IMG/VR virus record: IMGVR_UViG_3300020576_005251
Location: 96,001-160,000 of that record
Reading direction: 5' to 3' (one strand)
DNA length: 64,000 nt
From: a virus
Taxonomy: Duplodnaviria; Caudoviricetes
The translations under genes were made by a program, and so were the position numbers. The notes below the pieces were generated by a model. It was given only the letters and a program-made list of their open reading frames with translations. It made no database searches and was not told where the DNA came from. Shown here piece by piece: positions 82-62,707 of this stretch. Numbering within the stretch: position 1 is the stretch's first letter; each line of letters starts with the position of its first letter.

Positions 82-453
82 TCAGAAGATCATGTCTTCG
101 TCGGTCCAGACCGAGTCCGGAACGGTGCAGGGGGTAGCGGAGACGACCGAGAGATTCACCACATCGAGTGGGGGGCCTCCGGGGGCGATGTGCAGGCCGT
201 CGGTCGACCCCACAGGATCGACGCGGATCCGTACGGCGTATTGCTGCGAGATGCTGCCTCCGCGCATGGCCAGGATGATCTCGGGCTCCATGTCGCGCAG
301 CATCGTCTGGAGGCGCGGTCTTCCGATGAGGAAGGGGCGCTGCAAGACCAACACCCCCTTGTCCTGAGAGTACGAGGCTGAGGAGATGAGGAGCTGCTTG
401 TCACCGCTCAGGACACGGCAGTCAGTAGGCAGGTTGAGCTGCGAGATCTTCAT
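82..453 (-). CDS. hypothetical protein, probably virion-associated
   Basis: ATG ORF, 123 aa, overlaps upstream stop (ATGA); in structural block. Confidence 0.55.
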   Translation of the reverse strand: MKISQLNLPTDCRVLSGDKQLLISSASYSQDKGVLVLQRPFLIGRPRLQTMLRDMEPEIILAMRGGSISQQYAVRIRVDPVGSTDGLHIAPGGPPLDVVNLSVVSATPCTVPDSVWTDEDMIF

Positions 454-782
454 CCCTCATGAGTACCATCGGAGCTGTTCCGTGACAACAGAAGCTCACC
501 TAGCGCGATGACATTCGCGATGAATGCCCGTGCGGCGGGCGGGTCCTGGTTGAGCAACGCTGTCACGTACTGGCCCGCATGCGCCATCAATGCGAGAGCT
601 ACTTCATGCGCTGCGACACCCTCGTAGCTCTGCGCCATGACCGCACGAGCCTCTACGAGAATGTCTTGGGGTCTCATCGAACAAACCGGGCAGCACGGGA
701 CAACCCGTCCGCACTGAAAAGGCGGGACGAAGAGATCCTCATGACACGTTGGGCAGGCTCCGAAGTGAACTTGGGCGAACAC
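450..782 (-). CDS. Zn-ribbon protein (CPTC...CPVC)
   Basis: Two CxxC pairs; start uncertain (GTG 782 chosen; ORF open to 971). Confidence 0.5.
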   Translation of the reverse strand: MFAQVHFGACPTCHEDLFVPPFQCGRVVPCCPVCSMRPQDILVEARAVMAQSYEGVAAHEVALALMAHAGQYVTALLNQDPPAARAFIANVIALGELLLSRNSSDGTHEG

Positions 783-801
783 AGAGGGAGTGTATCGGAG
801 C

Positions 802-1263
802 CTACCCGTGATGTCGATGGCGGCGATGATGGTGCACTGGCGGAGGTGCCTGCCCACCGCCCATCGCGTACTGCATGGCGGTGGGTTGTGTGTAGGCCAT
901 CGCGGGGTAGCGTTGCGCGTTGGCCTGCGCTTCGATTGCGTCTTGCCGCGCGCGCTCGGCCTCGAACGCATCGAAGGCCGCAGCGGCGCTCGGCAAGGTG
1001 CGATACAGGAACTCGCTCGCGGCCTCCTTGAGGAGCACCTGCGCCGCCTTCTCGCGCCCCTCGGCCCAGAGCTTCTGGCGAAGCTCCGAGCTCGTCCACG
1101 GGCGCTTCCTCTCGTGAGGCCACGCGTAGCTGATCACTTCGCGTGCGAGGCGGCGGTCCTTCTGGTAGAGGCGGCGCAGCGCAGCAAGACGCCCCTGCAA
1201 GTGCTCAGGGCTTTCGAGCTTATCCTGAAGCGAGAACTCATCAGGCCCCAGGAGCGCGCTCAC
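802..1263 (-). CDS. hypothetical protein
   Basis: 153 aa ORF coupled to upstream gene by GTGA overlap. Confidence 0.55.
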   Translation of the reverse strand: MSALLGPDEFSLQDKLESPEHLQGRLAALRRLYQKDRRLAREVISYAWPHERKRPWTSSELRQKLWAEGREKAAQVLLKEAASEFLYRTLPSAAAAFDAFEAERARQDAIEAQANAQRYPAMAYTQPTAMQYAMGGGQAPPPVHHHRRHRHHG

Positions 1264-2543
1264 AGGTGTCCCTCCGACGGCTGCATCTGGATGCGATCGA
1301 ACGCGCGCTCGGTCCCGTTGTGCCCCGCAACCATCACCTCACCCACGAGGAGCTTGGTAATGTCTGCGAACTTCTCGCTGCTCGACTTGAACCCGAGGGC
1401 CTGGAGCATCGCGAGCTTCCCCAAGGTCCGGTAGGACGCGCCCTTGTACGCCTGTCGCGTGCGTGCGAACTCGGGCGTGCTCATGGTCTGGCGCAGGAAG
1501 TCGGGAGTGATCATGGTGCCGGGTGCCGTCTGGAGCAGGTGCGCTCCGAGAGAGTTCGAGTTCCTTGTGGCGGCGAAACCCCCTCCTGGCTGCACGCGTG
1601 CTCCGAGCGCCGAGCGCGACACGAGATCCTTCTTCAGCGTCTGTTGCATCCCCGGGGCGCCCATGACCATGGCGCCCTGAGAACTACGCTGAACCGGAGT
1701 GATCGGACGGGGCGCAGGCTCATGGCTGACGGCAAGCGCCGGATGGTCGACACGAGGCTGGGCCGGAGGCGTAGAGCCACGTCCCGTAGCACCCGAAAGG
1801 GCTCCGATCGGGGGGTGTGGGCGCTCAGAAACCTGTGTCGTCTTCGCGGCAGGCGCCGGGGGCGGCGCAGCCAGGAAGTCATGGAGGCGCGGCAGTTGGG
1901 CGGGTGTCTGGGGCGCAGATGCCTGCGGCAGCTGCGCCGTCTTCACCTGCGACTGTGGGATCTGCGGCGACTGCGCGGTCGGCGCCCTCGGAGGCTGCGC
2001 CGCGATGAAGTCATGCAGGGGCGGGGGCTTCGGCACGGAGGGTCGCGGAGCAGTTGGCGCGGTAGGCGCCGCAGCGCGCCCCCGACCCAGCAGCCCCTTG
2101 AGCGAGTCCATGAAGCCCGCGTCCTTCTCCATTACGCCGTATTGCCCGAAGTCCAGGGTGTAGCGGGGCTTCTGGGTGGGGCGAAAGCGAAGCAGCTGGG
2201 CGGTGAGCTCGTCCATGTTCCGGTAGACCCTTCGATGCCAGATCTCCTGGCCATAGAGAGCATAGATCGTCTCGCGCTGCGCGTCTGTCACCCCGACGAG
2301 AAACTTGGTCTCGTCGAGGACCCCGTCCTTCAGCTTCTGAAAGCTCTCCAGGTGGCCGTTGGGGTCGTCCCCCACGAAGAAGTCCAAGCCCTCGCCGTCC
2401 TCCGCCTTGTGGCCCGGCAGGTAGCCGTAGTCCACCGGGTAAGTGAAGGTCTTGCTCGACCCATCCGGCCGCTTCCACGTCTTGACGGTGCCCTTGGGGC
2501 GGTCGATGGTGAAGCGGAGGGACTTGAAGGACTTGGTGCGCAC
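1260..2543 (-). CDS. inorganic pyrophosphatase-like domain protein with Pro/Ala-rich linker
   Basis: N-terminal TIDRPKG...YPVDYGYLPG...DGEGLDFFVG resembles the family I PPase-like domain seen in phage polyvalent proteins. Confidence 0.7.
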   Translation of the reverse strand: MRTKSFKSLRFTIDRPKGTVKTWKRPDGSSKTFTYPVDYGYLPGHKAEDGEGLDFFVGDDPNGHLESFQKLKDGVLDETKFLVGVTDAQRETIYALYGQEIWHRRVYRNMDELTAQLLRFRPTQKPRYTLDFGQYGVMEKDAGFMDSLKGLLGRGRAAAPTAPTAPRPSVPKPPPLHDFIAAQPPRAPTAQSPQIPQSQVKTAQLPQASAPQTPAQLPRLHDFLAAPPPAPAAKTTQVSERPHPPIGALSGATGRGSTPPAQPRVDHPALAVSHEPAPRPITPVQRSSQGAMVMGAPGMQQTLKKDLVSRSALGARVQPGGGFAATRNSNSLGAHLLQTAPGTMITPDFLRQTMSTPEFARTRQAYKGASYRTLGKLAMLQALGFKSSSEKFADITKLLVGEVMVAGHNGTERAFDRIQMQPSEGHL

Positions 2544-3356: not shown

Positions 3357-3569
3357 TCACGTCTCCAATACGTCGTACGCCTGTCGCCAGAGGAGCTCGT
3401 TGCCCTTCTTCTCCAGCTTCCGAATCTGCCCTTCCACGAAGCTCTTCTCTTTGGCCGTCACTGGGCGCGACTTCCCATCTGGGTCGACAGCTTCTCGCAC
3501 ACCGCAAGCGCAGTAGCGAAAGGTGTCGCCGGGGACGTAGAAGTAGGTCCAGTGGTGAGAGTGGCTCAT
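3357..3569 (-). CDS. small hypothetical protein (His/Cys motif)
   Basis: 70 aa, ATGA overlap. Confidence 0.5.
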   Translation of the reverse strand: MSHSHHWTYFYVPGDTFRYCACGVREAVDPDGKSRPVTAKEKSFVEGQIRKLEKKGNELLWRQAYDVLET

Positions 3570-4063: not shown

Positions 4064-4332
4064 CAGAAGCTCGGGATTCCGTAGCGGCGGTAGGCGTCGG
4101 CGCGGCCCTGCTCGTAAGAAGAAACAGGGGGAGGGAGAAGGTCGTCGGGGGTCAGCGCGAGGGACGCCTGCTTGGGCTCTTCCGGGTTGTGGTAGTCGTC
4201 CACCAGCTTGTGTACGCCGTATCCGAGCGCCGCCAGGGCGCTGGTGCCGAGCGTCGCGAGCGCGAGGCGCGCGGGGAGCGACATCTTGGAGGGCGTAGGG
4301 ACCGAGGGGTTGAAGTTCAGTGCGGTGTCCAT
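4063..4332 (-). CDS. small membrane protein
   Basis: One hydrophobic helix LALATLGTSALAALGYGV. Confidence 0.6.
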   Translation of the reverse strand: MDTALNFNPSVPTPSKMSLPARLALATLGTSALAALGYGVHKLVDDYHNPEEPKQASLALTPDDLLPPPVSSYEQGRADAYRRYGIPSF

Positions 4333-5115: not shown

Positions 5116-5142
5116 AAGGATACGCCGTATTACCCTAACCTC

Positions 5143-7898: not shown

Positions 7899-8648
7899 TC
7901 AGGGGGCGAGGCGGCGGACGCTAGCGGTGATCGAGCCGGTGGTGTTCGCCACGAAAGACAGACCCCAGCCGGGCGGGATGACGGCCGAGGCGGCGGTGTG
8001 TCCCCGTTGAGCGGTCCCAGAAGCCAATACGGCGTACTGCTGAACCCTACGGTCGGGCGCGAGTCGCACGAGCCTGAGCTCCCAGGCCACCGATCCCGCC
8101 AGCGAGAAGAAGAACGAGGTCAGTGTGATCGGAAAGGGGGCGTCGAAGCAGATCAGCCCCGCGTCGACATCCTCAGCGTAAAACGAAGGCCCTGACGTGA
8201 GGTAGTCAGGCTCAAGCCCGCCTGAGAAGGTCCCGGATCCCGCGACAGGTGCGTCCGAACCATCACCCAGGTGAGACACGCCGATGTTGAAGTGCGCGAG
8301 GGCCGTCGCCGCCTCACGGCTCTCGTAGGCGCGGCGACACAGAGCAGCGAAAGCCGCTGCGCACTCCTCCGACGTGTCTCCTGCCGTGGGGGTGTAGCGA
8401 ATGGCCTTCGCCGCGTTCGAGACACGTGACGCCTCCAGCTCGACGCGTGCGAGCGCGGCAGGCGCCTTGACTTGCCACGTCATGCCGTTCATGTGCGAGC
8501 CGAGCTGCCACGCCGTCGCGCTCAGTCCCGCATCCCCGGAGCCCACGGAGGCGCTTGCGCGGCCGAGCTCGGCCACCCCAGTGAACGTGCCCGAGCCGTC
8601 GATCTCCTGCGTGAGGGACGCCCCGGCCGTGAAGTCGTGGTTGATCAT
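7899..8648 (-). CDS. putative structural protein, paralog of 4339-5115
   Basis: GSGTFTG near N-terminus, VIPPGWGL near C-terminus. Confidence 0.6.
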   Translation of the reverse strand: MINHDFTAGASLTQEIDGSGTFTGVAELGRASASVGSGDAGLSATAWQLGSHMNGMTWQVKAPAALARVELEASRVSNAAKAIRYTPTAGDTSEECAAAFAALCRRAYESREAATALAHFNIGVSHLGDGSDAPVAGSGTFSGGLEPDYLTSGPSFYAEDVDAGLICFDAPFPITLTSFFFSLAGSVAWELRLVRLAPDRRVQQYAVLASGTAQRGHTAASAVIPPGWGLSFVANTTGSITASVRRLAP

Positions 8649-10012: not shown

Positions 10013-11119
10013 GTGCACGAGATCTACCGCAGGATCAATACGCCGTACGCCCCGCTCCGCAAGGAGGCGTCGGGCATCCTGGGCGGTCTCGCTCACGGGC
10101 TCGGGATGGGGGTGGCAGGACACGCCGGGACGAACTTCCTCGGGATGAAGGCCCACCACCACTCGAACATCGGGGAGGTGCTCGCCCACCGGGGCTTTCA
10201 GCACGGGTTGCTGGAGCAGCGGATCTCCCCGGTGATGGAGCAGTCGATCAAGTCGGTGTTCGGCCCTGAGTCGCTGATCAACTACCACGCGGCGGTCGAG
10301 GCCGGGAAGCACTTCGTGACGAAGGCCCCGAACCCCGACCAACGTCGCAACGCGCTCCTCCTGGCGACTCAGCACGCGCTGCCTCACGACATGCCCGTGC
10401 TCTCGCAACTCCAGAGCGCGATGAACCACGAGCTGCAAGGGACCGCCCCTACGCTCAACGCGAAGGGGCTGAGCGCGTCGGTCTACGGGAAGATCCTCGA
10501 CAGCCTCACGAACAACCCGGTCACGGGGATGGAGACGAAGGCGCAGGCGGCGTGGAAGCACCTGAAGGGGGCGGGGCCTGCGGCGGCGATGGTCGGGGCC
10601 GACGTGGGGATGAGTGGCGTGCCATTGGGTGCCTTGGCACACTTCGGATGGAATGGGATGCGACAGGGGGCAGCGGCGACGGACATCGGTCAGCGGATCG
10701 CCGCCGACCAGATCGCGAAGGGCCTGAGCGGGGGAGTGCCCAAGTCCACGACGAAGTGGGACATCGGACTGAGCCCCGCCTACCTGGACGGGCAGCGGTT
10801 CGGCGGCGCATTGCGTAGGGCGATCCCTCAAGTGGGGTTGAAGAAGACACCCGAGGCACTCGCGTCGCGCTTGAGTACACCTGTGGGTAGTCGTACCGTT
10901 ACACGGGAGCCGGGCCGGGCCCTGGAGACTGCACACGACGTGCACAAGATCACACACAATCGTGGCGTCTTGGGGCAGTCGGATCCCGGGGCCAATCCAC
11001 GTCTACAAGAGCTGATCGTGAACAAGATGCGTCAGGCGGAGCCCGCGAAGTACAAGCTGGAACCTCTGATGGATCGCATCGTGCCTCGGTGGCGCCCACA
11101 AGTAAGGACGACAACATGA
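10013..11119 (+). CDS. Gly/Ala-rich putative virion internal protein
   Basis: N-terminal RKEAS then GxxxG segments; GTG start 10013 chosen. Confidence 0.6.
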   Translation: MHEIYRRINTPYAPLRKEASGILGGLAHGLGMGVAGHAGTNFLGMKAHHHSNIGEVLAHRGFQHGLLEQRISPVMEQSIKSVFGPESLINYHAAVEAGKHFVTKAPNPDQRRNALLLATQHALPHDMPVLSQLQSAMNHELQGTAPTLNAKGLSASVYGKILDSLTNNPVTGMETKAQAAWKHLKGAGPAAAMVGADVGMSGVPLGALAHFGWNGMRQGAAATDIGQRIAADQIAKGLSGGVPKSTTKWDIGLSPAYLDGQRFGGALRRAIPQVGLKKTPEALASRLSTPVGSRTVTREPGRALETAHDVHKITHNRGVLGQSDPGANPRLQELIVNKMRQAEPAKYKLEPLMDRIVPRWRPQVRTTT

Positions 11120-12123: not shown

Positions 12124-12639
12124 TCAAACCGGCTCCCTGACATCCCCCCACGACAGCCCCGCGTAGACCAGCTTGAACGCCGTCGTCACTCCGATGGCCT
12201 CTTCGAAGATGGAGATGCGCCGGAGATGGTCCCCGATGCCGTAGGTAAAGAGGCAACGCTCAATGAAGAGGGCTGCACGGCCGAAGTCGTAGCGACGGAC
12301 GGTTGACAGCTTCTCCCACCGGCTTGGGCTCCAGCCCGCGTATACGACGTACGCGTAAGCCACCCGCGCCATCGACTGAAGGATGCGGTTGTGCCGCCTG
12401 TCCGTGTGGAAGCGCGCGACCTGTTCCGGCGAGAGCTTCTTGATGAACTCCTCGTACCTCGCGGGATCCCGGCAGACCCACACAGCCTCAGGGCCGTACA
12501 GCGCCTCCAGCGGAGCTGTTCGAAGTTCACTCCCACTGAACCCGGGCGCGTAGCGGGAGGGCTCTGCGCGGAAGAACTCAGTGGCCTCTACGAGGTACGT
12601 GTCGACATCGTCGACATCATCGTCTATGTTGTCACGCAT
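12124..12639 (-). CDS. hypothetical protein
   Basis: 171 aa ATG ORF. Confidence 0.55.
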   Translation of the reverse strand: MRDNIDDDVDDVDTYLVEATEFFRAEPSRYAPGFSGSELRTAPLEALYGPEAVWVCRDPARYEEFIKKLSPEQVARFHTDRRHNRILQSMARVAYAYVVYAGWSPSRWEKLSTVRRYDFGRAALFIERCLFTYGIGDHLRRISIFEEAIGVTTAFKLVYAGLSWGDVREPV

Positions 12640-12712: not shown

Positions 12713-12718
12713 AGGAGA

Positions 12719-13524: not shown

Positions 13525-14067
13525 TCAGACCGTGATCCGCCTCTCATCCGGCCCGAACTCCCCCGCCTTCTCGAAGATCAGCACCCAGTCCAGGCCCGGT
13601 TCCAGCCACACGGGGGCCTTCCAGCGGCCCGTGGCGTCGGTCAATACGGCGTACTCCGACACGTCCCGACGCCCACGGTCCCACTCCGAGGCCCGAAAGA
13701 GCCGGATGATGGCGTCGGGGATCCCCTGGTTGGAGGGGGTCACGTAGCGCAGGTTGTCAGGGTCTTCGAAGTTGTGGTCCACCCGGGTGCGCGAGGCGAG
13801 CCCTGCGGCGACAGCGGCGGACGGCTGGAAGGGGCCGCTGTCGCCGTAGAGCTCCCCGTTGGGGCCGAGGGCGCGTACGCGGTACACGGTGGTGTCGGTG
13901 CCCTGAGGGTCCTCGATGGAGAAGCGACGGAAGGGCGCCTCCCAGTAGGGCCCGGGGACCTGATGGGCGATGGAGGTCAGGAAGCGCTCGGGGGTCTCGA
14001 CGAGGTGGACCTCGTAGCGCGTGGGGGTGTAGACCTCGGGCGGGGTCCAGTAGATGCGTTGGGCCAT
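13525..14067 (-). CDS. Ig/carboxypeptidase-regulatory-like beta-domain protein, probably structural
   Basis: YRVRALG segment and GIPDAIIRLF...TDATGRW...LEPG pattern. Confidence 0.55.
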   Translation of the reverse strand: MAQRIYWTPPEVYTPTRYEVHLVETPERFLTSIAHQVPGPYWEAPFRRFSIEDPQGTDTTVYRVRALGPNGELYGDSGPFQPSAAVAAGLASRTRVDHNFEDPDNLRYVTPSNQGIPDAIIRLFRASEWDRGRRDVSEYAVLTDATGRWKAPVWLEPGLDWVLIFEKAGEFGPDERRITV

Positions 14068-14787: not shown

Positions 14788-15125
14788 GTCGTAGCCTCCT
14801 TCTCGAACAGCACCATGTAGAGATAGCCACCCGACGCCCGGGGGTTGTATCGCATCACCCACTTCGAATACGCCGTAAGGCTCACTTCGTACTCGCAGTC
14901 GGCACGCGGGTCCAGATCGCTCCCGGAGTCCCGCAGGTCCTTCTTCACCTCGGAGATGAAGCGCTTGATGACCTTCTTCGGCACGTCAGCGCCGAGGCGG
15001 CTCTGTCGATCCGGCAGGAACTCCAGCGGCAATCGTCGATTGCCGTAGTTGAGGATCGCCCGCGCCGCCCAGGCGCGCTTGGTGCCTTCGGGAGGGCGGA
15101 GGCCGTACCACTCGTCGGTGGTCAT
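14784..15125 (-). CDS. hypothetical protein
   Basis: ATGA overlap; RAWAARAI...YNPRASGGYLYM. Confidence 0.55.
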   Translation of the reverse strand: MTTDEWYGLRPPEGTKRAWAARAILNYGNRRLPLEFLPDRQSRLGADVPKKVIKRFISEVKKDLRDSGSDLDPRADCEYEVSLTAYSKWVMRYNPRASGGYLYMVLFEKEATT

Positions 15126-16914: not shown

Positions 16915-17452
16915 TCTTGATCTCCTTCGCAGCTTGGCGAATCACCTGCGGCGCATCGAAGAGCCACTTCGACTCACCTTGCGGGAGGGTGTCCAGTTCA
17001 TCTCGAATCGCATTGAGCTGCTTGGCGTCTTCGGCCGTCAGCTCCTCCCTCGCGAGAAGTTCGTCCCGCTGCTTCTGAAGTTCGAGCACGCGTGGCGATC
17101 GGTAGCCGAGGCGAACGATCGCGGCGAGCTTGGGGTAGCTGAGGTCACCAGCTAACTTGTGGGACATGCCGACAGCGCGGCTGACGGCCAGGACGTTCGG
17201 GTCGTAGCCGAACCGCCAGGGGGTGGTGATGCTCAGGTACACGAGGCCGTACGCCGTACGACGCCCTTCGCAGTAGAGCAGAGAAAGCGCCTGTCGGGCT
17301 TTGGCGTGGAAGCGCGCCCAGAAGACATCGTCGTAGATGCGGGAGTGGGCCACGTGGCCTCGGAGAACCTGGGAAGGCACGTGACTTGAGATCGAGAGGG
17401 CCGACGCGTTGAGATAGCGAAGGCCGAACAGGCGTTGACTCATGAAACTCAT
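16907..17452 (-). CDS. hypothetical protein
   Basis: GGAGG-like RBS, coupled ORF. Confidence 0.55.
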   Translation of the reverse strand: MSFMSQRLFGLRYLNASALSISSHVPSQVLRGHVAHSRIYDDVFWARFHAKARQALSLLYCEGRRTAYGLVYLSITTPWRFGYDPNVLAVSRAVGMSHKLAGDLSYPKLAAIVRLGYRSPRVLELQKQRDELLAREELTAEDAKQLNAIRDELDTLPQGESKWLFDAPQVIRQAAKEIKSE

Positions 17453-18794: not shown

Positions 18795-18851
18795 CCAAAA
18801 GAGTGTGAACCAATACGGCGTACGGCGCGCTCGAACGCGCCGTACGCCGTC
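18795..18851 (-). terminator. terminator hairpin containing TACGSCGTA
   Basis: ACGGCGTACGGCGCG / CGCGCCGTACGCCGT stem then T tract on minus strand. Confidence 0.6.
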
Positions 18852-18870: not shown

Positions 18871-19668
18871 TCAGTCGATCTTGCGGACCTCGTTGGGATA
18901 GAAGAGCATGAGCTTCGGCCCCGCGAAGACCTGATCCTGGGGGCGTACGACGTACTGGTAGCCACCGAGGTTGTAGGTGATGGGTGCGTCGAGGGGCGTG
19001 CTAATCACGCCCACTGCGTGGGCGAGCGCGCCCTCGAAGAAGTTCCCGCGCTTGAGGTAGACGCGTGCGAACCGCCCACCCTCCGGCGTCAGCGCCCACT
19101 GGGCGGGCGACGTGTCGATGGCGCGCAGTTCATCCCGGAACGTCTCGATGACGTGGAAGGCGTGTACCCCAGATGGCGCCGCGCGTGCGGCGGGGCTCAT
19201 CCGCACTCCCTCGGCCGCGTTCAGCGAGCGGCGGTAGATCTGGTAGGCCGACGCGCCCCGCAGAGAGTCGTAGGGCGCGGCGAGGGTCTCAGCGAGGGAT
19301 TGCCACAGATCCTCCGCCCGATTGCGAATCTTGACCCACTCGGTCTCGGTGTACGAACCACGTCGGTCCGACTGCGCCAGACACCACGTCCAGAGCCCTC
19401 GAATGCGGTAGAACATGCCCTCCGCGTCGATGAGTTCCGCCTCGCCCTTGGGGACGAGCTTGGTGAGATCGACGCCTTTGAGGGTCTCGGCCACACCGAA
19501 GAGCGGGTGGCCGATCTGCTCTTCGAGTTCGAGCTGGACCTGCGCGTGCCCGGCGTATCCGTCGGCGATGAGCGTCTGGAGCCCGTCGAGGTCGGAGGCG
19601 TAGGGCTTGGGGTCGGGGGCGTATCGGGCGACGGTGAGGATGTAGCGGTCGATCCAGATCTTCTTCAT
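18871..19668 (-). CDS. hypothetical protein, paralog of 19665-20537
   Basis: Shared N-terminus and GNF/YxxGxLAH motif. Confidence 0.65.
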   Translation of the reverse strand: MKKIWIDRYILTVARYAPDPKPYASDLDGLQTLIADGYAGHAQVQLELEEQIGHPLFGVAETLKGVDLTKLVPKGEAELIDAEGMFYRIRGLWTWCLAQSDRRGSYTETEWVKIRNRAEDLWQSLAETLAAPYDSLRGASAYQIYRRSLNAAEGVRMSPAARAAPSGVHAFHVIETFRDELRAIDTSPAQWALTPEGGRFARVYLKRGNFFEGALAHAVGVISTPLDAPITYNLGGYQYVVRPQDQVFAGPKLMLFYPNEVRKID

Positions 19669-21117: not shown

Positions 21118-21635
21118 GCGCCCTCCGGGAAGAGCTCGGGGAAGTCGCGGCGGATCTTGCAGCGGCCCTTGAGGACGCTGGAGGTCTCCATCAACCGAAC
21201 GAAGTCGGGGGTCAGGATGTAGAAGCTCCAGCTGAAGTCGTGGCGGTAGACGCACAGGTACTGCCCCAGGGCGAGCTGGTCCGGGAACACCGCCTGCTCC
21301 TTGGGGCTGACACGCAGGAGCGTGAAGCACTTGTTGATGTAGCTGCGATCGAACACCTCGCGAGAGGAGTCGAGGCCCACCAGCGCGTGGGCGATGCCGA
21401 GGAGATCAGGCTCGTGCAGCTCATCGCCCACGCACTCGATGCGTACGGCGTATCCCTCGGCCTGAGGGTTCTTCTCCCAGTAGGCCCTGAAGTAGTCGTG
21501 GATGTACTCGCCGTGGTCTTCGGTGAAGGGCGTCGACGCCCTCGACTCTTTCAACGCTCGATCGAGCGCCATCAGGTCGTACTTGTCCAGGTCGACGCTC
21601 ACGGTCGCGAGCGGCTTCTTCTCATCTTCACTCAT
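21114..21635 (-). CDS. hypothetical protein
   Basis: Coupled ORF with RBS. Confidence 0.6.
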   Translation of the reverse strand: MSEDEKKPLATVSVDLDKYDLMALDRALKESRASTPFTEDHGEYIHDYFRAYWEKNPQAEGYAVRIECVGDELHEPDLLGIAHALVGLDSSREVFDRSYINKCFTLLRVSPKEQAVFPDQLALGQYLCVYRHDFSWSFYILTPDFVRLMETSSVLKGRCKIRRDFPELFPEGA

Positions 21636-21859: not shown

Positions 21860-22404
21860 CGGCCAAGCAACGCGTTCAATGCGAACCTACCAGTGAGGCG
21901 CCGAACTTCATCCACAGTAACGCGAAGAATCGCAGCCTGCCCTGCGTCGCCCTCCATCCAGAAACGACGGTTGGGTCTGAACCCACCCGCGAATCGGCGC
22001 CGCCAGTAGTGATACCTCGGCGAACCCCCTGGAGGCGGCTTGTCATAGGGGTCGGGGGTGGGGCCGCGCGGGACGCGACCACGGATCTTGAAGATGGTGG
22101 GTTCGATCTCCCAGAGGCGTTCGAGAGGAAGGTCGTAGAGCAGAACCGCACCTGCTTGTGTGGTGTCAAGCGCGAGCGGGAGTTTCGGGTCGCTTCCCGT
22201 GAAGAACCCGATCAGGTGGCCGTACGGAAACCACTCGACGGCGGATGGTCCGTACCAGTAGCTCCGCAGCCACACATACGGAGGGGCCCCGTTGAGAAGC
22301 GCGCCCAGGTGCGTCTCCATACGCCGTACGAGCGCCTCGTGGTGCCTCGCCTTCTCGCGATCGACCTTATGCATCAGCCGATGCAGTTCACCGCGTGTCA
22401 TCAC
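21856..22404 (-). CDS. hypothetical protein
   Basis: Coupled ORF. Confidence 0.55.
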   Translation of the reverse strand: MMTRGELHRLMHKVDREKARHHEALVRRMETHLGALLNGAPPYVWLRSYWYGPSAVEWFPYGHLIGFFTGSDPKLPLALDTTQAGAVLLYDLPLERLWEIEPTIFKIRGRVPRGPTPDPYDKPPPGGSPRYHYWRRRFAGGFRPNRRFWMEGDAGQAAILRVTVDEVRRLTGRFALNALLGR

Positions 22405-24042: not shown

Positions 24043-24684
24043 TCAGACTACGTAGCGAAGGTAGGCAGGATCGATGGCGCCTTCATCCGAGAGCGCCCAG
24101 GCGGCAGGAGAGCCGTGAAGCCCCGCAATCACCTGTGTGAGTTGCACGGTCACGCCGTTCAAACGCCCCAGCTTCCTCACGAGTCGCGTGCCGTGCGAGT
24201 AGTCGGCGTACTTCTTCGAGTGCACGGTACAGAGCGGCTGGACCGGCTTGACGGCGCCCTTGTACCACGCGCCGTAGATGATCACCTTGTCGCGCTTCTT
24301 TCGAAGTAGGCGCGACACCACGATGTCCTTCTTGTGGTCCACGAAGAGCCCCACACGCCCAGCGCGGTCCGCCTCGATCTTCTCGTTGGAGGTGCGCACG
24401 AGCCGATGGGCGGTGATGCTCTCGCCTGTGACGGGTCGCACGGAGCGGAAGGGGAGGTGGACGGCGTCAGGCGCCTCCCGGATACGCCGTACGATGGCGG
24501 GCGTCGGGAGCATGGCCTCGTACTCGTCGGCGTAGAGCTGCGCGACGGCCGGGGTGAGGGCCATTCGAACACCAGCGTCGTCTTGCAGGTAGTCGGTGGT
24601 AACTTCGATCTCCAAGCCCTCGGGGCAGGAGATCCAGATCCAGTTGGGGGTCATACCCAAAAGTAATGGGGAGGGTGCCGCCAC
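24043..24684 (-). CDS. conserved HKKD/YGxW/QP/DYSH family protein, possible cell-wall hydrolase
   Basis: HKKDIVV..IYGAW..PVQPL..H..YADYSHGTRLV motif set; function inferred. Confidence 0.55.
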   Translation of the reverse strand: MAAPSPLLLGMTPNWIWISCPEGLEIEVTTDYLQDDAGVRMALTPAVAQLYADEYEAMLPTPAIVRRIREAPDAVHLPFRSVRPVTGESITAHRLVRTSNEKIEADRAGRVGLFVDHKKDIVVSRLLRKKRDKVIIYGAWYKGAVKPVQPLCTVHSKKYADYSHGTRLVRKLGRLNGVTVQLTQVIAGLHGSPAAWALSDEGAIDPAYLRYVV

Positions 24685-41780: not shown

Positions 41781-42217
41781 TGGTACACACGCCACGTCTT
41801 GATCTCCTCGTAGACCGGGAAGCTCCTCGTGTCCTTCCACATGCGCAGGATCGCATCGAGCCCACTCTCGGTGCACTTGGAGAGCTCGGTCAATACGCCG
41901 TATACCCGGGTGTACTTGGACTCGGGCGTCTCCTCTCCGGTGTCGTTCATCTGCACCAGCGCCGCCGCCCACGCCGTCGTCAGCCCCAGCCCCTCTCCCC
42001 AGCCCTTCGCCGTCTCGTGAGTCCAGACCAGCCCACGGCTCCCGATCATCACCGGGCTGAGGTGCAGGTGGATCAGGACCTCGCGCGGCATCACCGACCC
42101 GAAGAGGCACCCGCATGCCTTCTCCTCGCTCCACAGCTTGGACGCGATGAGCTTCTTGTTCGGGAGCGCATCGAGCATCTCCAGCAGCGCCTTGATCCCG
42201 TCACTGACCTTCTTCAT
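41777..42217 (-). CDS. family B protein
   Basis: NKKL..LW..CGCLFG..W.G..MND..KY. Confidence 0.8.
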   Translation of the reverse strand: MKKVSDGIKALLEMLDALPNKKLIASKLWSEEKACGCLFGSVMPREVLIHLHLSPVMIGSRGLVWTHETAKGWGEGLGLTTAWAAALVQMNDTGEETPESKYTRVYGVLTELSKCTESGLDAILRMWKDTRSFPVYEEIKTWRVYQ

Positions 42218-43574: not shown

Positions 43575-43625
43575 GCCAAAGAAAGCGCGTACGGCGTATC
43601 GCAACAAGTGCGATACGCCGTACGG
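43575..43625 (-). terminator. terminator whose stem is two TACGSCGTA copies
   Basis: CGTACGGCGTATCGCA-loop-TGCGATACGCCGTACG then TTTCTTT on minus strand. Confidence 0.7.
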
Positions 43626-45313: not shown

Positions 45314-46263
45314 CAATCCACCCCCGCCCTTCCCCGCAGCACCCCAGGTTGTGGTTTGTATCGCCACCCCGCAGGCGACGTGTTCCGCACGACCTTGTGC
45401 CACGCCTGCCCCAGCCGCAGCGTGCTGTGCTCATCGTCCCTCACGTCACCCTTGACGAAGACGGAGTCACCCTCGAAGGTCATGTAGCGCACGACATGCC
45501 GGTTCTGACGGGAGCGGTCGCTTGAGAACTCCACCTGATCGATGGCCCGATCACTGACCACGGGCGTACCTAGCTCCGCCCGAGTCATCTTCACCTTCAT
45601 CTGCGGCTGCGGCACGAAGAACCACTCGCCTTGCCGGGGCGTGCCCACCGGCACATGCGCAGGCCGAAGGGCCTCCAACGCAGCCTCCACCGTGTCCACG
45701 TACGGCGTACTCGGGAGCATGCACAGGTAGTACATGCGCTTCTGGGGGTCGTCGTTTCTGTCGAGGCCCGAGAGGTAGAACCGACCGCCCAGGTCCGAGA
45801 ACAGACACTCCCCCAGGAAGTGGGCCTTCCTCTCCACCTTCTCACCCTTGATCACCCGCGTGCGCGTGAGCGTGAAGTCAGGGTTCACGTCTTCCACCCG
45901 GATGTACTTCGGCTCGATCCCAGCCGCCACCAGCGTCGAGAACGGGATGGTCGCGCTCGGCGCCCCCACCACCTTGATCGCGTCGAACAGCGCCCTTCGC
46001 TGGATGTCCGTACGCCGGGACGGCGCGGCGTCTCCGTTCACCACGACGTAGCTCCCGCAGATCCACGCCAGATCCCAGTGCACGTAGCTCATGAGCTGGC
46101 GGCCCCGGTAGCTCAGGCAGAGTGTGCCGTCGGGCGGCTGGAGGTTCTGGTTGAAGCCACCCCAACCACCCTTGGTGATCTTCGTCGTCTTCTTGAACTT
46201 CTTGGGGACCTCGTCCCACAGAGTGCGGCGCAGGAACGCCTCACAGATCTCTTGCTCGTACAT
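45313..46263 (-). CDS. hypothetical protein
   Basis: 316 aa; RQGEWFFVP...NRH...EH motif. Confidence 0.65.
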   Translation of the reverse strand: MYEQEICEAFLRRTLWDEVPKKFKKTTKITKGGWGGFNQNLQPPDGTLCLSYRGRQLMSYVHWDLAWICGSYVVVNGDAAPSRRTDIQRRALFDAIKVVGAPSATIPFSTLVAAGIEPKYIRVEDVNPDFTLTRTRVIKGEKVERKAHFLGECLFSDLGGRFYLSGLDRNDDPQKRMYYLCMLPSTPYVDTVEAALEALRPAHVPVGTPRQGEWFFVPQPQMKVKMTRAELGTPVVSDRAIDQVEFSSDRSRQNRHVVRYMTFEGDSVFVKGDVRDDEHSTLRLGQAWHKVVRNTSPAGWRYKPQPGVLRGRAGVD

Positions 46264-46843: not shown

Positions 46844-47581
46844 TCAGTCACTCTTGCTCTCCCTCACCACGTTCACTCCCGCCGCGCAGCACGTGAGCCC
46901 CTTCATGTCGATGCACACCATCGTCAGCTCCTCGGTGTCGTCGATCTTCCCGTCGAGGTTCCTGAGCATCGTCGCCACCTTCTGGTAGCCCCAGCTCCCG
47001 TGGCTCGTCTCCCCCTTCGTACGCCGTACGCGAGTCATCCCCTTGGCGAGTGCTCCTGCGAGCTGCGCGTCCGGGTCCGACGCCACGGCCATGAACAGCT
47101 TGAACGCCGCGATCGCCGCGCGCTCCTTCGCCGTGCCCTCGTCGGGCACAGGGATCTCATCGATGATCTTCCACCGGATCCTCAGCGCCTCGGCCGAGAG
47201 TTCCAGCGGATAGCCGTCGACATTGTCCCACCCGTGGTAGCCACCCACCCCGTAGACGAGCGCCTTCGCACGCACCTTCACGTCCTCGCTCCGCCCCTCC
47301 TCCTTGTCTGCCTCGCTCGCGTCTGCCGCCGCCCAGTCGTGCTCCTTGTACACGTCGTCGGGCACGTCAGAGCGATAGACCACCATCATCGTCCAGGGGT
47401 AGATGGCCTTGACTTCCTTCCGAGGCCCCGGCGTGTACTCGACGTAATGCGTCCCATCCGCGCGCTTCCAGAGCCCCCAGCCGCTGGGGAACTCCCCGTA
47501 GGAGACCTCGAAGTCGACGGGCAGGTTGTCGATGATCAGCTCGTCGTCGATCTGATAGGGTTCATTCATCGGATCTCCCAT
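46844..47581 (-). CDS. hypothetical protein
   Basis: 245 aa; YHGWDNVDGYPL motif. Confidence 0.6.
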   Translation of the reverse strand: MGDPMNEPYQIDDELIIDNLPVDFEVSYGEFPSGWGLWKRADGTHYVEYTPGPRKEVKAIYPWTMMVVYRSDVPDDVYKEHDWAAADASEADKEEGRSEDVKVRAKALVYGVGGYHGWDNVDGYPLELSAEALRIRWKIIDEIPVPDEGTAKERAAIAAFKLFMAVASDPDAQLAGALAKGMTRVRRTKGETSHGSWGYQKVATMLRNLDGKIDDTEELTMVCIDMKGLTCCAAGVNVVRESKSD

Positions 47582-50333: not shown

Positions 50334-50397
50334 CAAAGAAAACGCGACGCCGTACGCCCTGCCGCCGAACCATTCGGCGGCAGGGCGTACGGCGTAT
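50334..50397 (-). terminator. long terminator hairpin containing TACGSCGTA
   Basis: ~23-bp stem ACGCCGTACGCCCTGCCGCCGAA / TTCGGCGGCAGGGCGTACGGCGT with TTTTCTTT tail on minus strand. Confidence 0.7.
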
Positions 50398-51513: not shown

Positions 51514-52167
51514 TCACCCCACCCTCACAATCCGCCCCTTGAACGCCTCTTCCACCCGCGCGTCGTTGTTGTAATCCTTGTCCACGTACACCACCCGAAT
51601 CCCCCCGCTCAGCAGAGACTTCGCGCAGTTCCAGCAGGGGTAGGTGTTCGTGTAGATGTCCGCGTCCTTGATCGATACGCCGTATAGCGCCGCCTGCGCC
51701 ACCGCGTTCATCTCCGCGTGCACCGTCCGCACGCAGGTCTCCCGCCCGTTCGTGACCACGATGTCGTGCCCCACGTCGTCGCAGTGAGGCATCCCAGGGG
51801 GCGAGCCGTTGTACCCCGTCGCGATGATGCGCCGATCCCGCACGATCACCGCCCCCACATGCTTGCGGTCGCAGGTGGCGCGGGTGGCCACGACCTGGGC
51901 GATGTTCATGAAGTAGACGTGCGTGGAAGGTCGGAGATCCGTCGCCTTGTACAGGTGTTCGAGGGTGTCGTCAGGGAACCCCGCGACCTCCGAAAGGTCA
52001 CCGCCGATCGCGATCATGAGCGACTTGACGCTGCGATAGCGATTGACCTCGCCCCCGCAGTACGCGCGAGCCGCTGCCATGGACCGCTCGATCATCTCCC
52101 GTGCTTCCTTCGGCGTCCTCATCCTCATCTTCATCTCATCCATCGACTCTTCTCCCTTCGCTGTCAT
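51514..52167 (-). CDS. dCMP deaminase (ComEB/CDD family) with N-terminal extension
   Basis: RATCDRKHVGAVIV..TGYNG..HAEMNA..PCWNC zinc motifs. Confidence 0.9.
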   Translation of the reverse strand: MTAKGEESMDEMKMRMRTPKEAREMIERSMAAARAYCGGEVNRYRSVKSLMIAIGGDLSEVAGFPDDTLEHLYKATDLRPSTHVYFMNIAQVVATRATCDRKHVGAVIVRDRRIIATGYNGSPPGMPHCDDVGHDIVVTNGRETCVRTVHAEMNAVAQAALYGVSIKDADIYTNTYPCWNCAKSLLSGGIRVVYVDKDYNNDARVEEAFKGRIVRVG

Positions 52168-53175: not shown

Positions 53176-53299
53176 GGGTCTCCTATACGGCGTATTCGTC
53201 CGCCGCCCGAACCCTCGACACGCAGGGGCTCGGGCGGAGGACGAAGTCGAGCGCACCCACAACATGTGGGTGCGCTCATCCTTCTACCTGTGTTCTGGG

Positions 53300-55984: not shown

Positions 55985-56307
55985 TTGAGCATCTCCCGCA
56001 CCTGATACACCCGCTCTTCCACCTTCACATCGAACGCGCGCAGCGCGTTGTCGAACGTAGAGCCTTCCCCATCCGCGATGGCGCTACCGTCTTCGCAGAG
56101 CGAGACCCGCCACCCGCTCAGTCGGGCCTTCTTGATCGGGCAGAAGGCTCCCGGCAGTTCGATCGAGAAGACCACATTCTCCGGGGCCACGATCCGCCCA
56201 GGGCTCTCGGGCACTACCGTCTGGTACGCCACCAGCGCCCGTCGAAACACTTGCTCCAGCTCTCTCATGCTTCCTCCATACGCCGTATTGGCGTCAGTCC
56301 CCGTCAT
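55981..56307 (-). CDS. hypothetical protein
   Basis: Alternative start MRELEQ after GGAGG. Confidence 0.55.
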   Translation of the reverse strand: MTGTDANTAYGGSMRELEQVFRRALVAYQTVVPESPGRIVAPENVVFSIELPGAFCPIKKARLSGWRVSLCEDGSAIADGEGSTFDNALRAFDVKVEERVYQVREMLK

Positions 56308-57496: not shown

Positions 57497-57781
57497 ATGG
57501 ATGTCACCGGCCACCAGCTGGATGCGCTGATACGCCGTACGCGAGACTTCGCGCCGTGCGCCACCCTTCTCGCCATCCGTGACCACTACCGAACCACGGT
57601 CTGGGGGCGCTTCTGCTTCGCCCCCGACCGGCAAGCCCCGCTCTTCGAAGCCTACCATCGAAGATCCCTCGAACCCTTCTCCTATCCTGATCTCGACGCC
57701 GAGATCGACCGCACCAACACCATCACCATCACGCTGGAGGCCCCCTATGACACGCTGGCTCAGGAAGTCATTCGTCCGTGA
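57497..57781 (+). CDS. hypothetical protein
   Basis: ATG ORF, phage-like codon usage. Confidence 0.5.
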   Translation: MDVTGHQLDALIRRTRDFAPCATLLAIRDHYRTTVWGRFCFAPDRQAPLFEAYHRRSLEPFSYPDLDAEIDRTNTITITLEAPYDTLAQEVIRP

Positions 57782-58399: not shown

Positions 58400-58451
58400 A
58401 GAAAGAGGGGAGCGGCGTACGGCGTACGACCGAAGTCGTACGCCGTACGCG
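58397..58451. terminator. terminator between convergent genes; stem of two TACGSCGTA copies, UUCG loop on minus strand
   Basis: GCGTACGGCGTACGAC-CGAA-GTCGTACGCCGTACGC. Confidence 0.75.
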
Positions 58452-59826: not shown

Positions 59827-60540
59827 ATGAAGTCACCCGTCGCCTTCTGCGGTCGCAAGAAGTCTGGCAAGTCCACCATGGCCGCGTACCTCGTCTCCAA
59901 GGGGTACACCGAGCTCTCGCTCGCGGCTGAGCTCAAGACCCTCGCGGTCATGCTCTTCCCGAGCGTGCTCACCCCGGCCCGCGTCAACGCCACCTCCGAC
60001 GCCAAGGATGCCGTGTTCACGCCCGCCGAGCGTCGGGCGTCGGCGAACAACTCCCTCGCAGCCACCACATCCATTCGCCACGACCCCGATGTGCGCGCCG
60101 TGCTCACCAAGCTCTTCTCGGGCGCGGAGAAGCCGCCCACGAACTACGAGATGTCGGACCGCTTCGCCCGCGTCTTCGCGAACGTCGAGCGATCTCTCGC
60201 GAGCCCCCGCACCATCCTCCAGGTGCTCGGCACGGAGTGGGGGCGCTCTCTCTGGGAGGACGTGTGGCTGAACAGCGTACGGCGTACGATCGTGGACAAG
60301 CCCGGCCTCTACGTGATCCCCGACGCGCGCTTCCCCAACGAGCTCACCTACCTCAAGCAGCGCCTGGGGGCCTCGTGTTACTGGCTGGAGGCGGAGACGC
60401 GCCTGGGCCCCAACAAGGACGAGCACGCGTCGGAGCCCAAGCGCGAGGCGCTGATCGGCCAGTGCGACGGTGAGATCGACACCAACGGCCCGGTGGGCGA
60501 TTCGTACGCCCAGGTCGAGCGCCTCATCCTCGCGACCTGA
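59827..60540 (+). CDS. deoxynucleoside monophosphate kinase (T4 gp1/T5 dnk-like)
   Basis: GRKKSGKST P-loop; PRTILQVLGTEWGR; DARFPNE; HASE. Confidence 0.85.
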   Translation: MKSPVAFCGRKKSGKSTMAAYLVSKGYTELSLAAELKTLAVMLFPSVLTPARVNATSDAKDAVFTPAERRASANNSLAATTSIRHDPDVRAVLTKLFSGAEKPPTNYEMSDRFARVFANVERSLASPRTILQVLGTEWGRSLWEDVWLNSVRRTIVDKPGLYVIPDARFPNELTYLKQRLGASCYWLEAETRLGPNKDEHASEPKREALIGQCDGEIDTNGPVGDSYAQVERLILAT

Positions 60541-60541
60541 G

Positions 60542-62635
60542 CTACTTGTCCTTCACGTCCAGCTTCACCCGCTGCTTGACTTCCTTCGGAGGGAGCAGCA
60601 GCGGGTGCTTGTTGCTGGCGACCATATCCTCGACACCCATGGGCTTGTAGGTAGACTTGCCGATGTGCCACCCGAGGGTGCCGCCGAGCAGCGGGGCACC
60701 GACCTGAGACGCGAAGAAGAGCGGTAGGGACAACACCCTCGCGGCGGTCGGATGTTTCGCACCGAGGGCGTTCACTGCCTTCAGCGTCACCGCAGGCGCC
60801 CCTGGGATGCCCAGGAATGTACCGGCCAGGGTCCCCCACATCGCTCCCTGCGCCGCCCGGTTGATCTGCTTCTTCTCGTTCACCTTCGCCACTTGCCCCA
60901 GCGAGGCGTAGCCCATGTTCAGCAGATCGTCCTGCATCTGCTGAGCCATCAGGCGCGGCTTGCCCTCGAACTTCTCGTGCAGCTGCTCGGTCGCGAAGCC
61001 GTGGTTGAACTCGCTGTCCAGAGTCACCCCGGCCGGGTGCATGTATCGCAGGAGCCGCTTGCGCTTCTGCTGGACGACCGTCACTCCGTCCATGGCCTTG
61101 ACCACGTCGTCGAAGCTCGCTCGCTCGGCGCTGAGCTTCTGCCACAGTGGGCGCTTGAGTGGACCTCGGTCGCTCGCCTCTTGCAGCGCGCTCGCGATGT
61201 CCTTCGCGAGGATCCCCTTCTGCTCCGACGTGTGCGAGAGGTACTGCTCGATCGACTTCTTGGGCTTCATCCCGATCAGGAATGACGCCTTGTCGATCAA
61301 GTCTTCAGGGAGCTTCGAGTGATACTTCATCACTCGGACTTCCCGCTCTTCCTCGGGGAGGTGCTCGTGGCTCTTGTACCGGATGCCACGCCCGATCACC
61401 TGCTCGATGCGCGAGGGATTCCAGTGCGGTTCCATCAGCTGAATCGAACGCGTGCCCTTCAGGTCGAGACCCTCCGACCCGGCGCCCGACAGCAGGAGTA
61501 GCGGGGTCTTCCCGGAGTTGTAGTCCTCGATCATGGTTCGACGCTGCGTGGGGGACACCGACCCGGTGAACACGTTGTGCGCGACGCCCTGCTGCGTCAG
61601 CGCACGGCTCAGCGGCAGGATCCCCGAGTCGAGGTAGTTCGAGTAAACCACGCCCCGATGGTTGGGGTTCTTCGAACGCATCTCGTTGAGGTGCTGGAGC
61701 ATCAAGTTGAGCTTGCGCGAGTCCTTGATCTCCTGCTCGTCGGTCATGGAAGGGTCGTATGCACGTGCGGTGTTCGACACCTGACGCAGCGCCCCCTGGA
61801 ACGCATTCAGATCCTTGGACTCGCTCTTGTCCAGCGGGAGCCCCGAGCGAATCTTGGCGCGCAAGTACCACGGCATGGAGCCCTCGTGGAACTTGTAGTA
61901 CTCGTTTTGCTTGGACCCGAGAGGCACCTCATGCAGCTCATCGATCCGACGCGGGAAGCCCTCCCCGCCGCCCTGGTGTACGTCCACGTAGCCGGTGGCC
62001 GCGTCCACGAGGCGCTGTCGATTCACGAGCGCGGGCACCGTGACGTTGTCCACTGGATGGCCGAGGAGCTGCCCCTTCATGCGATCCCACAGCGGCGCCT
62101 GGATGGTCTTGGTCCCCACGAAGGTCTGACCGAACAGCTTTGGATCATCCGGCAACACCTTGCGTCCCGCAGCGGTGTTGAGCAGGATCGCGAGGTCGTG
62201 CGCCTGATTGTACACGGGAGTGCCGGTGAGGAGCAGCCGATCCTTCGCCTGGGCGACCTCCTGGGCGATGTGCTTCGCGATGCCGGTGCCCGCGTTGCGC
62301 GCCTTGTGCGCCTCGTCCATCACGGCGAGGCCGTCCTTGCGTACGTCGCGCTCCTTGAGGGTTCGCTCGTAGGACCGCACGCGCGCCCCATCGGGGATCC
62401 CTCCCGTGTGCTTGATCATCTCCTTCTGGTAGTTGGGGACCAGAGGGGCGGGGACGATGGCCTCGATGGGCTCATCCAGGGCGTCGCCTGCGGCGATGGA
62501 GGTCAGGGTCTTTCCGCTTCCCAAGCCATGCGCCACCAACACCCCATGCGACGCCTTCAGCTTGTCAATCACCCGCTGCTGGTGAGGCTGTAGCGGCGTG
62601 CGGAGGTCGGCGGTCTTCAGGTAGAGGGCGTGCAC
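60542..62635 (-). CDS. SNF2-like SF2 helicase/ATPase with C-terminal hydrophobic extension
   Basis: HGLGSGKT, DEAH, LTGTP, EGLDL, QVIGRGIR motifs. Confidence 0.9.
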   Translation of the reverse strand: MHALYLKTADLRTPLQPHQQRVIDKLKASHGVLVAHGLGSGKTLTSIAAGDALDEPIEAIVPAPLVPNYQKEMIKHTGGIPDGARVRSYERTLKERDVRKDGLAVMDEAHKARNAGTGIAKHIAQEVAQAKDRLLLTGTPVYNQAHDLAILLNTAAGRKVLPDDPKLFGQTFVGTKTIQAPLWDRMKGQLLGHPVDNVTVPALVNRQRLVDAATGYVDVHQGGGEGFPRRIDELHEVPLGSKQNEYYKFHEGSMPWYLRAKIRSGLPLDKSESKDLNAFQGALRQVSNTARAYDPSMTDEQEIKDSRKLNLMLQHLNEMRSKNPNHRGVVYSNYLDSGILPLSRALTQQGVAHNVFTGSVSPTQRRTMIEDYNSGKTPLLLLSGAGSEGLDLKGTRSIQLMEPHWNPSRIEQVIGRGIRYKSHEHLPEEEREVRVMKYHSKLPEDLIDKASFLIGMKPKKSIEQYLSHTSEQKGILAKDIASALQEASDRGPLKRPLWQKLSAERASFDDVVKAMDGVTVVQQKRKRLLRYMHPAGVTLDSEFNHGFATEQLHEKFEGKPRLMAQQMQDDLLNMGYASLGQVAKVNEKKQINRAAQGAMWGTLAGTFLGIPGAPAVTLKAVNALGAKHPTAARVLSLPLFFASQVGAPLLGGTLGWHIGKSTYKPMGVEDMVASNKHPLLLPPKEVKQRVKLDVKDK

Positions 62636-62648
62636 CCTCTTAGGATAG

Positions 62649-62707
62649 CCAAAAGAAGGGGTGTCCGTCTACGGCGTACGCCCCAGGGCATGGGGCGTAC
62701 GCCGTAT
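62649..62707 (-). terminator. terminator with stem of two TACGSCGTA copies
   Basis: TACGGCGTACGCCCCA-loop-TGGGGCGTACGCCGTA; TTCTTTT downstream on minus strand. Confidence 0.65.

Follow-up and report, generated by a model that had tools for sequence, protein, structure and literature searches.

We analysed a stretch of 64,000 bp (hereafter the window), bases 96,001-160,000 of IMG/VR record IMGVR_UViG_3300020576_005251, from a Caudoviricetes phage whose whole genome has 172,885 bp, 64.4% GC and a CheckV completeness of 100%. Scattered across the window is a short palindrome, TACGSCGTA (S, G or C), and outside it (genome 48,327-49,508, minus strand) lies the gene for the only HTH_ParB protein of the phage, 394 aa long (hereafter the ParB-like protein), which we consider below as a candidate reader of the palindrome. 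A sequence-only reading of the window had listed 35 starts of this word; all 35 are exact matches, an exact-match search returned no further ones, and 31 carry the R..Y flanks, as had been counted by eye (Table 1). Dinucleotide shuffles of the window contained 0.09 ± 0.29 matches, with a maximum of 1.

The whole genome has 92 TACGSCGTA sites and a single match to the reversed control pattern. TACGSCGTA is the commonest 9-mer of the genome, where Markov models of order 0-3 expect 0.4-1.8 copies. By our gene calls (187 genes; crude and based on GC at third codon positions), 70 sites lie within genes, compared with 0.7 after shuffling the order of codons and 2.9 ± 1.8 after shuffling synonymous codons; the enrichment is stated as 50-fold or more across controls, the synonymous-codon control itself giving 70 versus 2.9. 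The genome-wide check against Markov models and codon shuffles that the sequence-only reading had proposed thus leaves the enrichment standing. Its remark that the sites are read in different frames and are not driven by protein sequence also held: genic sites are found in each of the three reading frames, in either orientation, and are translated as Y-[AG]-V, T-[AP]-Y or [VIL]-R-R-[ITM]. Because of this, and because the enrichment outlasts the synonymous and codon-order shuffles, a protein-coding or RNA cause was ruled out.

Dyad symmetry extends to ±7 positions, or ~15 bp (S-M-R-TACGSCGTA-Y-K-S), and the centre base is without bias relative to gene strand (34 versus 36). Variants with a single mismatch have 0-9 copies each, the notable one being a form with A or T at the centre (9 copies). 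Three such sites in the window fill long gaps, and we therefore take TACGNCGTA as the working motif, with S preferred at the centre; it has 101 sites genome-wide. When the A/T-centre sites were included, the gaps became more uniform in each of the five related genomes, so these sites belong to the array. About 77% of sites are inside genes, and there is no intergenic enrichment (23 of 101 sites, versus 17% non-coding DNA; p = 0.11).

The sites are spaced far more evenly than expected by chance. In the window, the gaps are as the sequence-only reading had described them, with three pairs of sites 21-28 bp apart, one gap of 5.0 kb and the others of 0.7-3.6 kb. The test against random placement that it had suggested was carried out on the whole genome, with an average density of about one site per 2 kb: the coefficient of variation (CV) of the gaps is 0.58 versus 0.98 ± 0.10 for random placement, and evenness of this degree arose in none of 5000 simulations. 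Gaps reach 5.2 kb at most, compared with a random median of 9.1 kb for the largest gap, and only 5 gaps are below 500 bp where ~21 are expected, 4 of these 5 being close pairs 21-52 bp apart. Site counts per tenth of the genome are under-dispersed (variance/mean 0.27). This pattern points to a function that profits from sites placed a few kilobases apart, has no benefit from additional close ones and is harmed by long gaps. We conclude that the TACGSCGTA array is real and strongly selected as DNA.

The three close pairs of the window form hairpins with a motif copy in both arms (-32 to -38 kcal/mol), the sites in each being 21-28 bp apart. These motif-bearing hairpins may double as terminators, at least one (58418-58447) lying between convergent genes.

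Table 1. Sites of the palindrome and its A/T-centre variants along the window (window positions)
Feature	Position	Strand	Basis or remark
TACGGCGTA site	232..240	.	exact match
TACGCCGTA site	2133..2141	.	exact match
A/T-centre variant TACGTCGTA	3369..3377	.	gap-filling variant class
TACGCCGTA site	4213..4221	.	exact match
TACGCCGTA site	5121..5129	.	exact match
TACGGCGTA site	8028..8036	.	exact match
TACGCCGTA site	10039..10047	.	exact match
A/T-centre variant TACGACGTA	12343..12351	.	fills 3.6-kb gap 10039-13645
TACGGCGTA site	13645..13653	.	exact match
TACGCCGTA site	14869..14877	.	exact match
TACGCCGTA site	17250..17258	.	exact match
TACGGCGTA site	18814..18822	.	exact match
A/T-centre variant TACGACGTA	18946..18954	.	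variant search
TACGGCGTA site	21444..21452	.	exact match
TACGCCGTA site	22320..22328	.	exact match
TACGCCGTA site	24483..24491	.	exact match
TACGGCGTA site	26855..26863	.	exact match
TACGGCGTA site	28217..28225	.	exact match
TACGGCGTA site	29868..29876	.	exact match
TACGGCGTA site	30578..30586	.	exact match
TACGGCGTA site	33467..33475	.	exact match
TACGGCGTA site	34648..34656	.	exact match
TACGGCGTA site	36880..36888	.	exact match
TACGCCGTA site	41894..41902	.	exact match
Site pair 43590 + 43614, two arms of a 16-bp-stem hairpin	43590..43622	.	fold -32.6 kcal/mol, z -6.7
TACGGCGTA site	45701..45709	.	exact match
TACGCCGTA site	47020..47028	.	exact match
TACGGCGTA site	50388..50396	.	exact match
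TACGCCGTA site, position shared with relative G004	51676..51684	.	exact match and comparison with relative
TACGGCGTA site	53186..53194	.	exact match
TACGCCGTA site	56279..56287	.	exact match
TACGCCGTA site	57531..57539	.	exact match
Site pair 58418 + 58439, arms of a perfect hairpin with convergent genes either side	58418..58447	.	fold -32.7 kcal/mol, z -6.5
TACGGCGTA site, position shared with G004	60278..60286	.	exact match and comparison with relative
Site pair 62670 + 62698, hairpin arms	62670..62706	.	fold -38.3 kcal/mol, z -4.7

Turnover and mirrored variants of the array in relatives

A terminase search returned four relatives from IMG/VR (G001-G004), one of them a complete 186.8-kb genome with terminal repeats. 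TACGSCGTA is the top 9-mer in all four, with one site per 1.6-2.7 kb and gap CVs of 0.49-0.64. Mapped genic sites lay at the same codons in 18 of 20 cases in G001 (~85% median protein identity), 12 of 52 in G004 (~48%), 10 of 43 in G003 (~46%) and 2 of 18 in G002 (~49%). The conservation of single sites therefore greatly exceeds what neutrality would predict, even though sites turn over, and density and spacing are maintained. The conservation in relatives for which the sequence-only reading had called is thus found for density and spacing; of the individual positions about a quarter are kept at ~46-48% identity and the rest have turned over. At sites present in one genome only, the encoded residues often differ between relatives (for example HPE versus YGV), which indicates that the motif is imposed on the proteins.

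Further metagenomic and IMG/VR relatives were gathered with the phage RNA polymerase and the ParB-like protein as queries, and their genomes carry lineage-specific forms of the palindrome. The form TACGNCGTA is that of this phage (92 S-centred sites in 172.9 kb), G001-G004 and many contigs; L043, L045, L047 and L058 have TTTACCnGGTAAA (7 in 18.9 kb); L067 and L068 have TTTACGnCGTAAA (3 exact copies in each of the two contigs, 16.8 kb and 14.0 kb); and L065, G005, L074 and L078 have TTCACGnCGTGAA (in G005, 18 in 51.7 kb, CV 0.26). G008 carries TTCAC-NNN-GTGAA, in which the spacer is free (23 in 43.8 kb, CV 0.57), and G007, a complete genome of 191 kb, carries TAACCnGGTTA (34 versus 2.65 expected, CV 0.61). 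All share one architecture, two inverted half-sites of 5-6 nt with a 3-bp spacer, and the changes are mirrored in both halves, in a clade of phages that spans 55-69% GC. The top 9-mer of L040, a tandem 9-bp coding repeat GCATGCAGG (L040:7955-8180), was rejected as it is not a dispersed motif. In G006 (L103-L107), the top 11-mers come from a 6-bp tandem unit, ACGGCT, repeated ~26 times, and TACGNCGTA sites are sparse (about 1 per 6 kb).

The bacterial parS consensus TGTTNCACGTGAAACA has the core TTCAC/GTGAA (PMC7022226), and the same half-sites are found in sister lineages, the present genome's own form being TAC-GSC-GTA. The sequence-only reading had set parS aside as a different sequence; with these sister half-sites (TTCAC-NNN-GTGAA) and one ParB/Noc-like gene per readable lineage, parS appears to be the closest relative of the motif.

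In most lineages examined, one site lies ~370-440 bp upstream of the start of the ParB-like gene (381-399 bp in assembled genomes). Of this site the left half, CTTTAC, is invariant and the right half tracks the lineage motif (CGTAY, CGTGAA or GGTT). The site is orthologous across lineages and has changed together with the genome-wide word. A 62-aa zinc-ribbon open reading frame upstream of the ParB-like gene (L007:14770-14958, genome ~49,770-49,958, minus strand) contains two motif copies 52 bp apart, one of which is this positionally conserved site.

A megablast search of phage records found no close cultured relative, and the best terminase matches were ~30% identical (Salmonella phage Arash and Vibrio phages). 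A tRNA search of the genome returned none, so there is no tRNA-based clue to the host. Scanning bacterial genomes with an RNA polymerase profile yielded matches of just 26-30%, from Salinivibrio contigs and from a Myxococcales metagenome-assembled genome, and was uninformative on the host. The Salinivibrio contigs L108 and L110 contain distant (27-30%) relatives of the beta' piece of the phage RNA polymerase, in stretches that are probably phage or prophage DNA.

The ParB-like protein and its genomic setting

The ParB-like protein matches PF17762 in its helix-turn-helix (HTH) region at 8.6e-7, and G000, G003 and G004 have exactly one HTH_ParB gene each. In every lineage with a readable neighbourhood, a homologue lies at the corresponding place, flanked by an SNF2 helicase gene on one side and a sigma-like gene on the other; that of G007 is too divergent for Pfam and was recovered by tblastn. 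Box II (GRxRxRA) and box III (ENxAR) are invariant in five homologues, and the HTH is also kept. Among PDB profiles, the family profile matches Noc (5.6e-14), ParB, Spo0J and KorB.

The AlphaFold model of the protein has a mean confidence (pLDDT) of 81, with values >90 over most of residues 40-280. Its top Foldseek matches are Noc, cytidine triphosphate (CTP)-bound ParB and KorB, over the N-terminal and DNA-binding domains, and the modelled DNA-binding domain superposes on the ParB-parS, Noc-NBS and KorB-OB structures. Residues 1-37 form a basic disordered tail of low model confidence. A homodimer is predicted via a C-terminal helical hairpin (residues 293-377), with an interface score (ipSAE) of 0.75 versus 0.00 for the best of three controls; the ipSAE mark used is reached by 20 of 30 solved homo-pairs and by 1 of 23 single chains. 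The homodimer runs agree in at least 65% of contacts, with a partner pLDDT of at least 74, and some of this result may stem from the protein's resemblance to solved ParB dimers. A comparison of residues revealed no simple code linking the recognition helix to the motif.

The complete genome gave no match to PF01656 (CbiA family) in a search for ParA, other ParA-type families not being searched, whereas 14 of 14 control genomes matched. Likewise, for DNA methylases, neither PF00145 (C5) nor PF01555 (N6/N4) was matched in the genome; other methylase families were not searched. The annotated genes include sigma-like factors, PolA, a primase-helicase, two SNF2 helicases, a UvrD helicase, a PD-(D/E)XK nuclease, an RNase T-type exonuclease and a class II ribonucleotide reductase, and most conserved genes are without a Pfam or PHROG match.

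Outside the window the phage also encodes a fused beta-beta' multisubunit RNA polymerase of 2,428 aa (genome 54,611-61,897; L008:611-7894) with LAGLIDADG/Hom_end (intein) and AAA_18-like inserts, and L008:9890-11686 encodes a further Rpb1_5 piece on its own. The L058 lineage has its polymerase divided in another way, with a 767-aa gene bearing an inorganic-pyrophosphatase-like (InPase) domain upstream. In this phage, a 427-aa InPase-domain protein (window 1263-2543, minus strand) and a DHH/DHHA1 phosphoesterase (window 58988-59815, plus strand) are encoded in the window. Genes for a deoxycytidylate (dCMP) deaminase, a T4-type deoxynucleoside monophosphate (dNMP) kinase and ThyX are present as well (window 51517-52167, minus, and 59827-60537, plus; L011:6258-7100, minus); such a nucleotide-metabolism set sometimes accompanies modified bases, and a modification enzyme was not found.

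Candidate readers of the array and its possible uses

The symmetry, spacing and co-variation of the sites point to a reader of double-stranded DNA that is dimeric and sequence-specific and whose preference has drifted among the lineages of the clade. The sequence-only reading had proposed that a dimeric protein binds the palindrome at regular intervals, and this is well supported, if indirectly, by the ±7 symmetry, the mirrored variants and the kept density. We consider it highly probable that the sites are bound by a dimeric protein encoded by the phage itself. That this protein is the phage's own ParA-less ParB/Noc/KorB-type protein, and the array its genome-wide set of "split-parS" loading sites, is the interpretation we favour, and we hold it to be probable.

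According to this model, which draws on analogy with ParB, Noc and KorB, each site would be a split parS, with short inverted half-sites around a 3-bp spacer (TAC-GSC-GTA, with symmetric flanks), and would be bound by a dimer of the ParB-like protein. Such a protein would be expected to prefer a CAATACGSCGTATTG duplex over scrambled or half-site-mutant DNA. The bound dimer would close into a CTP-dependent ring and the closed clamp would slide ~1 kb to either side; with sites every ~2 kb, no gap above ~5 kb and almost none below 0.5 kb, the whole phage chromosome would be loaded with clamps and host DNA would not. The coat could serve to compact or separate phage DNA or to shield it, or it could be a moving platform that brings the phage RNA polymerase and sigma-like factors to phage DNA, comparable to the role of the T4 sliding clamp as an activator of late transcription. 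We infer that the protein reads the sites, uses CTP and slides, and likewise what the coating might be for. Noc and KorB illustrate that ParA-less or multi-site versions of ParB exist. By sliding, KorB can reach promoters at distances of up to 1.5 kb (PMC11790492), and a kilobase spacing therefore fits the ParB family; the regularity of the spacing suggests a physical length scale, for example the range over which a clamp slides.

Several observations weigh against the ParB-like protein as the reader. The 3-bp spacer is non-canonical and implies a dimer geometry unlike that of the canonical 16-bp parS. There is no clean correspondence between the residues of the recognition helix and the motif type, lineages that share a motif differing in the helix, and the ParB gene is absent from the 19 kb obtained for the TTTACCnGGTAAA lineage. 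All lineages have both gene and array, and their co-variation may follow from shared ancestry alone. Orphan ParB-fold proteins of phages can have other jobs, such as the activation of thymine dioxygenase by ParB-fold proteins that are without a DNA-binding domain (bioRxiv 10.1101/2025.08.14.668559). Finally, many conserved proteins without an assigned function could read the sites instead.

This last point leads to the possibility that the ParB-like gene is a conserved bystander and that another dimeric sequence-specific protein, phage- or host-encoded, reads the sites as a repressor, roadblock or nucleoid-type organiser. The symmetry, spacing and co-variation demand a dimeric reader but name none; most conserved genes match nothing in Pfam or PHROG, and the ParB recognition helix does not follow the motif cleanly. 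We nevertheless judge this unlikely, because the half-sites of sister lineages equal the parS core and the ParB-like protein is the only conserved protein identified with a recognisable sequence-specific DNA-binding domain of a palindrome-binding family. A host reader would, in addition, have to change in step across the hosts of phages with 55-69% GC. The ribbon-helix-helix and winged-HTH proteins that the sequence-only reading had named as candidates appear unlikely readers, since the gene calls in the stretch concerned (window ~27.6-32.3 kb) have no detectable homologue in G004, which keeps the motif.

The palindromes might instead be cleavage or nicking sites of the T5, tf or phiKMV type, or entry points for replication or recombination such as Okazaki-spaced priming sites or recombination hot spots. 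A spacing of 0.5-5 kb is comparable to the lengths of Okazaki fragments, a palindrome would serve both strands, and the candidate reader gene lies in a replication module by the primase-helicase, PD-(D/E)XK nuclease and PolA genes. Known phage nick sites, however, are asymmetric and strand-specific, primase sites are trinucleotides, and the PD-(D/E)XK protein matches the RecB/Cas4-type family PF12705 and not a restriction enzyme. As the duplex symmetry over 15 bp also points to double-stranded recognition by a dimer, we regard this explanation as quite improbable. We give still less credence to targets of a modification- or restriction-type system, or a mimicked host signal (Chi or an uptake sequence). 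A palindromic, lineage-specific motif does resemble the specificities of restriction-modification systems, and the dCMP deaminase, dNMP kinase and ThyX speak for an active nucleotide metabolism, but phages normally avoid restriction sites and do not enrich them, one mark per 2 kb would be insufficient against restriction, and the two methylase families searched gave no match. A mimicked Chi or uptake sequence would be asymmetric; the centre base of the present motif shows no bias by strand or gene direction. Cluster A stoperators, which are asymmetric and oriented with transcription, were ruled out by the symmetry of the site and its centre-base counts by gene strand.

Of the systems compared, the nearest is a 17-bp dyad repeat of the Cluster O mycobacteriophages (Corndog), 5'-TGTTCGG-NNN-CCGAACA, present in ~31-34 or more copies; those who described it expected a dimeric protein to bind it, discounted the ParB-like gp90 and left the repeat's function unexplained (PMC4351075, PMC6439249). 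Both arrays consist of dozens of inverted half-sites 3 bp apart, dispersed genome-wide at about 1 per 2 kb in a phage with a ParB-like gene, and neither phage has an integrase or parAB. An alignment of the orphan ParB-like gp90 of Corndog (L111:928-2433, minus strand) with the present family takes in boxes II and III as well as the HTH (hhalign 97%, E 6e-11), so that one explanation may cover both arrays. The motif sequences differ, and in Cluster O most sites lie between genes or close to gene starts, with a higher density at one end, whereas the present ones are ~77% genic and even; Corndog is a 70-kb siphovirus, compared with phages of 170-190 kb with their own multisubunit RNA polymerase.

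KorB of plasmid RK2, a CTPase clamp of the ParB family, is loaded at dispersed palindromes of odd length with an S centre and slides ~1 kb (PMC11790492). The phage protein matches KorB in profile and fold, and the sister-lineage motif TTTACCSGGTAAA differs from the KorB operator OB (TTTAGCSGCTAAA) at two mirrored positions. RK2 carries 12 promoter-proximal OB sites and encodes a ParA (IncC) and the partner KorA; the phage has 92 sites, mostly inside genes, no ParA match (PF01656) and no KorA-like partner identified. Noc, the best match of the phage protein in sequence and fold, is likewise a ParA-less ParB paralogue with many scattered sites, ~70 on the Bacillus subtilis chromosome or about one per 60 kb. 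The phage array is ~30-fold denser, however, and where Noc tethers DNA to the membrane via an N-terminal amphipathic helix, the phage protein has a basic disordered tail. With ParABS and the N15 SopB sites the array shares, in sister lineages only, the TTCAC/GTGAA half-site core of parS, and the phage protein has the ParB architecture of N-terminal domain, HTH and C-terminal domain. It differs from them in the 3-bp spacer, in having dozens of sites versus 1-10 near an origin, in lacking a ParA (PF01656) match and in that none of the annotated genes hints at maintenance as a plasmid or lysogen.

A literature search for the motif sequence returned primers only, and we came across no paper on this motif, nor on a parS-type array spanning the genome of a lytic-type phage. 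ParB/parS-type recognition itself is already known; on our best reading, what is new is its use throughout the genome of a large phage. The further suggestion that virulent-type large phages coat their whole chromosome with orphan ParB-type CTP clamps loaded from a gene-embedded array, and so mark their own DNA, is put forward tentatively and with more doubt than confidence.

Orphan ParB-like genes are common in phages without an agreed role, and the Cluster O dyad repeats have gone unexplained since 2015. The selection acting on the present array is strong enough to overwrite protein sequence, and the at least five mirrored motif variants within one clade, each with a ParB-like protein of its own wherever the gene's surroundings are readable, provide a clean natural experiment. 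If the proposed reading is true, the ParB fold would have a new job, and one principle would account for the Cluster O repeats as well as for comparable arrays in further phages. The clade would then also supply orthogonal pairs of protein and site, and the biology of ParB and its CTP switch would reach from segregation and local gene control to the coating of a whole virus genome.

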